Below are positions 42,702 to 46,725 of a stretch of DNA of 64,000 bases, piece by piece (within the stretch, counting starts at the first letter, position 1; the number at the start of each line of letters is the position of its first letter). The notes below the pieces were generated by a model. That model worked only from the letters and a program-made list of their open reading frames with translations. It did no database searches and was not told the DNA's origin. The position numbers and the translations under genes are program-made. Source of the DNA: Eledone cirrhosa (lineage: Eukaryota); assembly GCA_964016885.1 (NCBI GenBank), contig OZ024742.1, positions 219,108,001 to 219,172,000 on the forward strand, read 5' to 3'.

Positions 42702-45261
42702 ATAAATGCTCTGAAATAGCGATATATATGTGAATATAGACATAGAATATTCGAAAATATTCTGTATGTTTATAATAAACATTTTGAAGACCTAATCGCT
42801 ATAGAATAGAATACGTCACGTATTACAATTAGATTCTCGATAAAAGCAAGGGAAGTAATCTACGCGTTTCATTCTTGTTAGAATTCATCAGGACCACATA
42901 TCCAGTGCTTTTATCGAGAATGACACAGCTAGAGACTTATAGAATACTTAGCTGTGTACAGGAACTGGTTTGAAAGAGCGGTTGCCGGTCCGGCAGAAAT
43001 TAGAAATTGGAATAAATGCTCTGAAATAGCGATATATATGTGAATATAGACATAGAATATTCGAAAATATTCTGTATGTTTATAATAAACATTTTGAAGA
43101 CCTAATCGCTATAGAATAGAATACGTCACGTATTACAATTAGATTCTCGATAAAAGCAAGGGAAGTAATCTACGCGTTTCATTCTTGTTAGAATTCATCA
43201 GGACCACATATCCAGTGCTTTTATCGAGAATGACACAGCTAGAGACTTATAGAATACTTAGCTGTGTACAGGAACTGGTTTGAAAGAGCGGTTGCCGGTC
43301 CGGCAGAAATTAGAAATTGGAATAAATGCTCTGAAATAGCGATATATATGTGAATATAGACATAGAATATTCGAAAATATTCTGTATGTTTATAATAAAC
43401 ATTTTGAAGACCTAATCGCTATAGAATAGAATACGTCACGTATTACAATTAGATTCTCGATAAAAGCAAGGGAAGTAGTCTACGCGTTTCATTCTTGTTA
43501 GAATTCATCAGGACCACATATCCAGTGCTTTTATCGAGAATGACACAGCTAGAGACTTATAGAATACTTAGCTGTGTACAGGAACTGGTTTGAAAGAGCG
43601 GTTGCCGGTCCGGCAGAAATTAGAAATTGGAATAAATGCTCTGAAATAGCGATATATATGTGAATATAGACATAGAATATTCGAAAATATTCTGTATGTT
43701 TATAATAAACATTTTGAAGACCTAATCGCTATAGAATAGAATACGTCACGTATTACAATTAGATTCTCGATAAAAGCAAGGGAAGTAATCTACGCGTTTC
43801 ATTCTTGTTAGAATTCATCAGGACCACATATCCAGTGCTTTTATCGAGAATGACACAGCTAGAGACTTATAGAATACTTAGCTGTGTACAGGAACTGGTT
43901 TGAAAGAGCGGTTGCCGGTCCGGCAGAAATTAGAAATTGGAATAAATGCTCTGAAATAGCGATATATATGTGAATATAGACATAGAATATTCGAAAATAT
44001 TCTGTATGTTTATAATAAACATTTTGAAGACCTAATCGCTATAGAATAGAATACGTCACGTATTACAATTAGATTCTCGATAAAAGCAAGGGAAGTAATC
44101 TACGCGTTTCATTCTTGTTAGAATTCATCAGGACCACATATCCAGTGCTTTTATCGAGAATGACACAGCTAGAGACTTATAGAATACTTAGCTGTGTACA
44201 GGAACTGGTTTGAAAGAGCGGTTGCCGGTCCGGCAGAAATTAGAAATTGGAATAAATGCTCTGAAATAGCGATATATATGTGAATATAGACATAGAATAT
44301 TCGAAAATATTCTGTATGTTTATAATAAACATTTTGAAGACCTAATCGCTATAGAATAGAATACGTCACGTATTACAATTAGATTCTCGATAAAAGCAAG
44401 GGAAGTAATCTACGCGTTTCATTCTTGTTAGAATTCATCAGGACCACATATCCAGTGCTTTTATCGAGAATGACACAGCTAGAGACTTATAGAATACTTA
44501 GCTGTGTACAGGAACTGGTTTGAAAGAGCGGTTGCCGGTCCGGCAGAAATTAGAAATTGGAATAAATGCTCTGAAATAGCGATATATATGTGAATATAGA
44601 CATAGAATATTCGAAAATATTCTGTATGTTTATAATAAACATTTTGAAGACCTAATCGCTATAGAATAGAATACGTCACGTATTACAATTAGATTCTCGA
44701 TAAAAGCAAGGGAAGTAATCTACGCGTTTCATTCTTGTTAGAATTCATCAGGACCACATATCCAGTGCTTTTATCGAGAATGACACAGCTAGAGACTTAT
44801 AGAATACTTAGCTGTGTACAGGAACTGGTTTGAAAGAGCGGTTGCCGGTCCGGCAGAAATTAGAAATTGGAATAAATGCTCTGAAATAGCGATATATATG
44901 TGAATATAGACATAGAATATTCGAAAATATTCTGTATGTTTATAATAAACATTTTGAAGACCTAATCGCTATAGAATAGAATACGTCACGTATTACAATT
45001 AGATTCTCGATAAAAGCAAGGGAAGTAATCTACGCGTTTCATTCTTGTTAGAATTCATCAGGACCACATATCCAGTGCTTTTATCGAGAATGACACAGCT
45101 AGAGACTTATAGAATACTTAGCTGTGTACAGGAACTGGTTTGAAAGAGCGGTTGCCGGTCCGGCAGAAATTAGAAATTGGAATAAATGCTCTGAAATAGC
45201 GATATATATGTGAATATAGACATAGAATATTCGAAAATATTCTGTATGTTTATAATAAACA
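42696..45261 (-). repeat. 310-bp tandem array, left arm (about 8.3 units); hammerhead-containing retrozyme-like units on the minus strand
   Basis: aataaatgct recurs at 42701, 43011, 43321 ... 45181 (period 310). Units are near identical and the arm is preceded by (TA)n. Confidence 0.95.
42855..42897 (-). ncRNA. Same hammerhead on the minus strand; 8 copies at 310-bp spacing (42855 ... 45025)
   Basis: gtaatc-tacgcg-tttc-attcttgttagaat-tcatcag-gaccac is the reverse complement of the motif at 45319. Confidence 0.88.
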
Positions 45262-46725
45262 CAGCTAAGTATTCTATAAGTCTCTAGCTGTGTCATTCTC
45301 GATAAAAGCACTGGATATGTGGTCCTGATGAATTCTAACAAGAATGAAACGCGTAGATTACTTCCCTTGCTTTTATCGAGAATCTAATTGTAATACGTGA
45401 CGTATTCTATTCTATAGCGATTAGGTCTTCAAAATGTTTATTATAAACATACAGAATATTTTCGAATATTCTATGTCTATATTCACATATATATCGCTAT
45501 TTCAGAGCATTTATTCCAATTTCTAATTTCTGCCGGACCGGCAACCGCTCTTTCAAACCAGTTCCTGTACACAGCTAAGTATTCTATAAGTCTCTAGCTG
45601 TGTCATTCTCGATAAAAGCACTGGATATGTGGTCCTGATGAATTCTAACAAGAATGAAACGCGTAGATTACTTCCCTTGCTTTTATCGAGAATCTAATTG
45701 TAATACGTGACGTATTCTATTCTATAGCGATTAGGTCTTCAAAATGTTTATTATAAACATACAGAATATTTTCGAATATTCTATGTCTATATTCACATAT
45801 ATATCGCTATTTCAGAGCATTTATTCCAATTTCTAATTTCTGCCGGACCGGCAACCGCTCTTTCAAACCAGTTCCTGTACACAGCTAAGTATTCTATAAG
45901 TCTCTAGCTGTGTCATTCTCGATAAAAGCACTGGATATGTGGTCCTGATGAATTCTAACAAGAATGAAACGCGTAGATTACTTCCCTTGCTTTTATCGAG
46001 AATCTAATTGTAATACGTGACGTATTCTATTCTATAGCGATTAGGTCTTCAAAATGTTTATTATAAACATACAGAATATTTTCGAATATTCTATGTCTAT
46101 ATTCACATATATATCGCTATTTCAGAGCATTTATTCCAATTTCTAATTTCTGCCGGACCGGCAACCGCTCTTTCAAACCAGTTCCTGTACACAGCTAAGT
46201 ATTCTATAAGTCTCTAGCTGTGTCATTCTCGATAAAAGCACTGGATATGTGGTCCTGATGAATTCTAACAAGAATGAAACGCGTAGATTACTTCCCTTGC
46301 TTTTATCGAGAATCTAATTGTAATACGTGACGTATTCTATTCTATAGCGATTAGGTCTTCAAAATGTTTATTATAAACATACAGAATATTTTCGAATATT
46401 CTATGTCTATATTCACATATATATCGCTATTTCAGAGCATTTATTCCAATTTCTAATTTCTGCCGGACCGGCAACCGCTCTTTCAAACCAGTTCCTGTAC
46501 ACAGCTAAGTATTCTATAAGTCTCTAGCTGTGTCATTCTCGATAAAAGCACTGGATATGTGGTCCTGATGAATTCTAACAAGAATGAAACGCGTAGATTA
46601 CTTCCCTTGCTTTTATCGAGAATCTAATTGTAATACGTGACGTATTCTATTCTATAGCGATTAGGTCTTCAAAATGTTTATTATAAACATACAGAATATT
46701 TTCGAATATTCTATGTCTATATTCA
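45259..46725 (+). repeat. 310-bp tandem array, inverted right arm (about 4.7 units); hammerheads on the plus strand
   Basis: Reverse complement of the left-arm unit. acagctaagt recurs at 45261, 45571, 45881, 46191 and 46501. Ends in (TA)n. Confidence 0.95.
45319..45361 (+). ncRNA. Type I hammerhead ribozyme with minimal stem III; further + copies start at 45629, 45939, 46249 and 46559
   Basis: GUGGUC-CUGAUGA-AUUCU(AACA)AGAAU-GAAA-CGC-GUA^-GAUUAC. Intact core, 5-bp stem II, 6-bp stem I continuing into a 16-bp helix, palindromic ACGCGU. Confidence 0.88.

Follow-up and report, generated by a model that had tools for sequence, protein, structure and literature searches.

Predicted hammerhead retrozymes of Eledone cirrhosa form head-to-head arrays with paired ends, probably through priming of both strands of (TA)n targets by a Penelope-like enzyme

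Introduction

Metazoan retrozymes of the type that lacks long terminal repeats (non-LTR) are described as dispersed, multicopy elements made of low-GC tandem units of 150–450 bp, each with one type I hammerhead ribozyme, and a circular RNA template together with a helper Penelope-like element (PLE) or long interspersed nuclear element (LINE) has been proposed for them (PMC7229834; bioRxiv 10.64898/2026.07.22.740005). In the passages of these two sources considered here, the repeats are head-to-tail and the mechanism of mobilisation is left open, and in the 2026 preprint the explanation offered is local amplification and unequal crossover. Here, we examined an array of 310-nt hammerhead repeats located in an intron of a PKG-like gene in a 64,000-nt stretch of Eledone cirrhosa DNA (assembly GCA_964016885.1, contig OZ024742.1, positions 219,108,001 to 219,172,000 of the forward strand), referred to below as the window. 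The array is inverted, and is probably one recent retrozyme insertion in which a Penelope-like enzyme used a single RNA as template and the two strands of a cut (TA)n tract as primers.

The other closely comparable systems are PLEs that carry an endonuclease (EN+ PLEs). Those of the Neptune/Nematis type are reported to have a head-to-head inverted, 5′-truncated copy, a tail of 30–40 nt at one end only and a bias towards (TA)n (PMC8557442, PMC3846280, PMC11167929). For a PLE purified from anole, cleavage and extension have been reported on both target strands, a dimeric state is predicted, and two internal start sites set the 30–40-nt tail (PMC11167929). The origin of the inverted copies and one-sided tails was called undefined in PMC8557442.

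The Eledone arrays share with metazoan non-LTR retrozymes the unit size, the low GC content, the type I hammerhead in each unit and the dispersal. Unlike the published retrozymes, they consist of two arms placed head-to-head, target (TA)n and have ends that are fixed and paired, a pattern suggesting that each array is born as a multimer in a single step. They resemble EN+ PLEs in the head-to-head inversion, the one-ended tail, the (TA)n target and a hammerhead upstream of two internal start sites for reverse transcriptase (RT) (PMC11167929), but they have no open reading frame (ORF) and both of their arms are multimers of one unit. The tail, which is optional in EN+ PLEs, is one-sided in every complete inverted array, and the junctions are not palindromic above chance. 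Retrozymes, their proposed PLE origin, and the inversions and tails of PLEs are already known. No report of inverted, paired-end retrozyme arrays was found in the literature covered, including parts of PMC11722881 and PMC8490949, with most subscription papers and Repbase notes falling outside that scope.

An inverted retrozyme array in a PKG intron

Tandem Repeats Finder reported two 310-nt arrays in the window, at 42696–45261 (8.3 copies) and 45259–46734 (4.8 copies). They are reverse complements of one another over 1476 nt (100% after rounding), with the nearest arms 131 nt apart, and they overlap by exactly three bases, ACA, at 45259–45261. The left arm (42696–45261, − strand) is antisense to PKG and contains 8.28 units with eight hammerhead cores, while the right arm (45259–46725, + strand) contains 4.73 sense units with five. 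Comparison of the whole array with one unit revealed a single mismatch, at 43478 in the left arm, and none in the right arm up to 46725. With unit positions counted from 0 after the predicted ribozyme cut, the 3-nt microhomology at the junction corresponds to positions 79–81 on the − strand and 213–215 on the + strand. The outer end of the left arm is at position 164 (site A, see below) and that of the right arm is at position 129 (site B), or 138 if one mismatch at 46726 is allowed. Each outer end adjoins a (TA)n target tract, at 42667–42695 on the left and 46726–46751 on the right. An earlier reading of this locus, made from the sequence only, had proposed an inversion through a 3-bp ACA, about eight antisense units followed by five sense hammerheads on the PKG strand, and a potential for about 1.46 kb of near-perfect double-stranded RNA, and all of these are borne out.

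The repeat is a predicted non-LTR retrozyme with a type I hammerhead. The unit of 310 nt with a GC content of 34.5% falls within the range for such elements (tandem units of 150–450 bp, GC below 50%), and 13 cores were found in the 13 units that cover the ribozyme part of the array. The first sense hammerhead (45310–45375, + strand) is predicted to have a 6-bp stem I, a 5-bp stem II and a palindromic stem III of 1–2 bp, and the predicted cuts on the + strand fall after 45355 and then at each 310 nt. The Rfam model Hammerhead_HH9 aligns to 45310–45375 with an intact core (E 0.01, 21.5 bits), under the gathering score of 52, and a scan of the window with Rfam gave no match at gathering score. 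Folding of the unit is predicted to be stable (z −4.05) and a dimer fold is also predicted. No frame of at least 100 aa was found in the array, and no RT or GIY-YIG ORF such as an autonomous PLE would have. Across the genome, the ends of one subtype were matched exactly 949 times for A and 667 times for B, as expected of a dispersed, multicopy, non-coding element.

PKG-like exons were found on the + strand in the correct order on both sides of the array, with Pfam cNMP_binding matches near window positions 36303 and 50375. As had been proposed earlier, the array lies between the exons of two cyclic nucleotide monophosphate (cNMP)-binding domains. The intron (40377–47983, 7607 nt) has GT-AG borders and separates the exon closing the first domain (40271–40376, + strand, with the GT donor directly after it) from the exon opening the second (47984–48047, + strand), which joins the upstream exon in frame. 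The host gene, including the upstream of these exons, is named as PKG-like from neighbouring PF00027 matches and from short motifs taken to be those of PKG.

Inverted arrays with paired ends are the rule in the family

A search of the genome with one unit covered 40 of 128 candidates and gave 438 matches, most of them in blocks with a − part ahead of a + part. The orientation and ends of 80 arrays from one assembly were then surveyed in three samples. The first consisted of 20 arrays picked by identity, including the array in the window, and was not selected by ends. The second consisted of 40 arrays on contig C1 picked by the A end, and the third of 20 arrays picked by a B end without an exact A partner in the list. 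The array in L078 duplicates one in L079 and was counted once, a second array at the edge of L037 was left out, and very short sense arms in L037 and L086, missed by the script, were typed by eye.

Inversion was found in 72 of the 80 arrays, or 72 of the 76 with a resolved orientation, the orientation of L035, L059, L080 and L143 being unresolved. Seventy of the inverted arrays were complete and two had one end unresolved (L040, L085). In L080, one arm exceeded 30 units. All 72 were head-to-head, with antisense units followed by sense units and the 3′ ends toward the flanks, and this was the case for all 18 inverted arrays in the end-unselected sample. Inversion is the default of the family and is not specific to the PKG locus.

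Relative to the predicted cut, the outer ends were at 164–171 (site A, mostly 164) or at 126–138 (site B). Every one of the 70 complete inverted arrays had one end of each type, approximately 26–45 nt apart, and there were no A/A or B/B arrays. The 70 include 17 end-unselected arrays, 36 picked by the A end and 17 picked by the B end; for the 17 that were end-unselected, the chance of this outcome under independent equal choice is 0.5^17 (hand calculation). In the end-unselected sample, the arrays adjoined TA on both sides unless a different repeat came in between (L035, L040); the other two samples had been chosen on one TA end. Any target-site duplication would be masked by the (TA)n. The head-to-head inversion with a one-ended tail and the AT-rich/(TA)n target that characterise PLE insertions are both seen here.

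In the first full sense unit of the PKG array, site B corresponds to an AU-rich tract at 45482–45494 (+ strand) that would be able to pair with (TA)n, and site A corresponds to 45520–45527 (+ strand), where the homology to TA amounts to approximately 2 nt. A GC-rich palindromic hairpin (45532–45542, + strand) lies a short way 3′ of site A; it is kept in related families approximately 70% identical and is a candidate enzyme-binding element.

Most family copies in the sequencing runs differ from the PKG array at two positions in the hammerhead, 45321 and 45332 in the window, so that the PKG array belongs to a minor subfamily (184 exact core matches). Related families of hammerhead repeats, approximately 65–80% identical to the unit, were also found (L055:1300-1873, L111:278-705, L091:2433-2864 and L082:9518-9827). 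Their ribozymes differ from that of the unit, the site A/B region and the GC hairpin are shared, and those seen whole are also head-to-head and adjoin TA tracts. A short head-to-head insert in (TA)n (L123:3130-3330) has a hammerhead core near that of the family in the PKG intron. One end of this insert is approximately 60 nt longer than the other, and it occurs twice through tandem duplication.

Arms and junctions

The unit variants in the two arms were compared in 43 arrays with arms longer than 330 nt. The same majority variant was found in both arms in 40 of the 43, versus 143 of 1806 between-locus pairs (8%). Nineteen unit variants were present, 13 of them seen once, with 0–10 deviating bases per array, and the variant of the PKG array was found in five of the others. 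With one mismatch in approximately 4 kb and near-identical copies on other contigs, the PKG copy is very young. No clustered A>G changes were found in the 43 arrays, an indirect test as it used DNA only.

Arm lengths were available for 51 arrays. In 31 of these the A arm was the longer one and in 20 it was the B arm, with medians of 5.2 units for A and 3.2 units for B (p 0.016). Junction positions were uniform round the unit (Rayleigh p 0.39 and 0.75), near-symmetric junctions numbered eight of 51 versus 6.7 expected, and only three of 102 junction ends were within 5 nt of the cut site. Microhomology of at least 2 nt was present at 28 of 50 clean junctions, versus 17.7% by chance, and a further 21 junctions had inserted or variant bases. 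For this count, 763 values of '15' arising from an inverted repeat inside the unit were removed, and two loci contributed two junctions each. At the complex junctions of three arrays (L039, L050, L077), short sense and antisense pieces alternate several times, which resembles the templated insertions of end joining.

Penelope-like elements in the same genome

GIY-YIG frames are abundant in this genome (150 matches scored, 10596 candidates). The frames inspected encode an RT and, at the C terminus, a nuclease with C-X4-C-X2-C in front of it, and most of the elements terminate in (TA)n, features that fit the Neptune/Nematis type (PMC8557442). In four loci on contig C1 (L110, L111, L115 and L120), head-to-head PLE copies were found together with long frames that combine RT and GIY-YIG (1096 and 938 aa from stop to stop), and these elements are candidates for the mobilising enzyme.

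A pattern search for the end motif of one autonomous PLE family gave 3850 exact matches. Among the first 100 of these, 22 −/+ pairs and no +/− pairs within 5 kb were counted by eye. Twenty stretches of this family were fetched, of which 19 were true pairs (L165 was not an inverted pair) and 15 were typable, the motif running into the ORF in the other four (L154, L159, L168 and L169). The tail was on one side only in all 15. The short end is 123 nt past the element's own hammerhead cut and the long end is at approximately 165–175 nt (read off), a spacing similar to that of the retrozyme ends. An autonomous PLE with the same footprint is therefore resident in the genome.

Other repeats in the window

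SINE-like (short interspersed nuclear element) repeats in both orientations are found around the flanking PKG exons (39674–40049, 42218–42403 and 49285–49479), where they make further inverted pairs 2–7 kb apart. A 39-nt unit is present in 33 copies at 99% match at 26402–27689, approximately 400 nt upstream of one PKG exon. Broken copies of non-LTR retrotransposons with RVT_1 matches (7127–9246 and 15667–17459) begin beside (ACAT)n and AAT/AAC-type simple repeats.

Discussion

Taken together, we consider it probable that the PKG array is a single recent insertion of the 310-nt retrozyme, and that its inversion arose when a Penelope-like enzyme primed the two strands of a cut (TA)n tract, with a single RNA, probably a circle, as the template. 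Retrozyme transcripts would self-cleave and circularise, and a PLE dimer with RT and GIY-YIG activities would nick both strands of the (TA)n. Synthesis from one target 3′ end would begin at site A, where pairing is slight, and synthesis from the other at site B, approximately 26–45 nt away, helped by TA:AU pairing. Both cDNAs would then circle the template for unequal numbers of turns, and their free ends would be joined by microhomology-mediated end joining. Arrays would thereby be born multimeric and inverted, with the duplex in the intron as a by-product. A circle of one unit gives the best account of variants that are private to an array and fixed in all units of both arms, of arms far longer than typical arrays and of the seamless passage of the cut site. 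Twin priming during integration of a multimeric cDNA had been suggested in the sequence-only reading, and this part is well supported by the fixed polarity, the A/B ends, the shared variants and the microhomology. The switch protecting the PKG pre-mRNA that was suggested alongside it is unsupported.

Several points weigh against this proposal. Four of the 80 arrays (L038, L089, L134 and L142) were not inverted, and the 60 arrays of the second and third samples, all from one contig and chosen by a 3′ end, cannot reveal tail-to-tail arrays. All of the evidence comes from one assembly. A circular template is something we infer, and a homogeneous linear multimer would give similar arrays; later gene conversion could also add to the identity of the arms. 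No autonomous partner was recognised by sequence among the 40 GIY-YIG loci searched of the 10596 candidates, and in those 40 all matches of the unit were to related retrozyme-like repeats or to TA-rich noise. In another PLE family (L115), the sole inverted copy seen has equal ends on both sides, indicating that A/B pairing is not universal. Finally, no piece spanning the ACA junction at 45259–45261 was found among the pieces covered (24 of 1509 in one set and 19 of 58 in another); contigs drop rare variants. Among 4266 restriction site-associated DNA (RAD) reads aligned from another sample, 37 carried no partial flag, and these could not be assigned.

Fold-back, or self-priming, would make both arms from a single cDNA. 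The enzyme would change template, moving either onto the cDNA it had just made or onto an antisense RNA, and would copy back until the AU tract paired with the (TA)n end on the other side. Head-to-head PLEs with junction palindromes have been proposed to self-prime in this manner on an antisense template (PMC3846280). This would account for identical arms and for the TA-like site B, and the tendency of the A arm to be longer and the few junctions that are near-symmetric or switch repeatedly (L039, L050) also fit. However, a copied-back arm cannot outgrow its template, yet the B arm was the longer one in 20 of the 51 arrays (19 versus 3.2 units in L061), and the palindromic junctions that fold-back predicts occur at the level of chance. 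We regard it as unlikely.

In L1 twin priming, two primers from both target strands are used, leaving an inverted 5′ part and microhomology at the junction, and inverted L1 insertions are reportedly produced in this way. A non-PLE enzyme, such as one from the RT elements beside simple repeats in the window, could conceivably have acted similarly, as RVT_1 fragments of other non-LTR elements do adjoin microsatellites there. The retrozyme arrays, however, have no poly(A) or simple-repeat tail, and both of their ends are internal and fixed. In contrast to L1 twin priming, the arrays show no priming at poly(A), their second start site is fixed instead of random, inversion is the rule and the arms exceed the unit length. 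The spacing of the ends matches that of the PLE tail, and a PLE family of the same genome has the same one-sided tail. An origin of this type is quite improbable.

It had also been proposed that the orientation switch is a regulatory device, in which the antisense arm evolved or was kept to silence the intronic ribozymes, tuning PKG via ADAR or Dicer. The PKG transcript would indeed contain more antisense than sense units, and in the predicted fold of 44951–45575 (−362.9 kcal/mol) the duplex buries the hammerhead, the stems of which form only without the left arm. A fast ribozyme is reported to have blocked splicing, but introns cut by a hammerhead or by RNase H could still be spliced in human cells and extracts (PMC2995048). 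In addition, hammerheads with a short palindromic helix III are reported to be weak as monomers and to cleave poorly unless dimerised (PMC4209133). The lack of clustered A>G changes gives no sign of editing in the 43 arrays, though indirectly. Head-to-head geometry puts the antisense arm first in either reading direction at all loci. As the same shape is found in 72 of the 80 arrays and the PKG copy, near-identical to copies on other contigs, is very recent, a function specific to PKG was rejected and a selected switch is very unlikely. The PKG locus is an ordinary member of the family. Silencing of the ribozymes and action of ADAR or Dicer are plausible as side effects, since the duplex is predicted to mask the hammerhead, and any benefit is more likely to be a general filter on intronic insertions than a switch.

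The possibility that the junction is a fold-back read or an assembly artefact draws on the lack of a listed contig piece across ACA and on the trouble that inverted PLE structures cause assemblers (PMC8557442). It was rejected, as the junction has an asymmetry of 131 nt, the flanking sequences do not mirror each other, the exons run on past the array in order and in frame, the ends follow the A/B rule, and an artefact would not yield a single polarity in all 18 inverted end-unselected arrays; only the slightest likelihood is left to it. Five other antisense-to-sense joints were found in run contigs at a depth of 12–40, with 1–5 shared bases and short sides of 20–28 nt, and two of these were present in two runs of one sample (platform not on record). 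An origin from two separate insertions in the same (TA)n, or from an inversion that took place later within a plain array, is scarcely credible and largely refuted already, for although (TA)n tracts are reused as targets and neighbouring arrays exist (L037, L079), the two arms share their variant far more often than arrays at different loci do, there is no TA at the junctions, and strict A/B pairing with outward 3′ ends follows from neither event.

To date, the support for mobilisation of animal retrozymes by PLEs has consisted of shared ribozymes and co-distribution. The Eledone arrays show the integration footprint of PLEs in a clean and countable form over roughly a thousand young loci, and they supply exact start sites, a target and a template for the existing in vitro assay. 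We tentatively raise a broader possibility, namely that an asymmetric Penelope dimer holds a single circular RNA by two neighbouring start sites and, in one step, rolls an array into both strands of the cut (TA)n in opposite directions, which might also explain the one-sided tail and the inversion of PLEs generally. Each insertion would then be a self-masking hairpin, because the antisense arm comes first whichever direction the host gene is read, and such hairpins may be tolerated in introns and feed small RNAs against the family. The arrays argue that some satellite-like arrays arise from one reverse-transcription event and not from unequal crossover, and their significance is in the mechanism of integration rather than in PKG.

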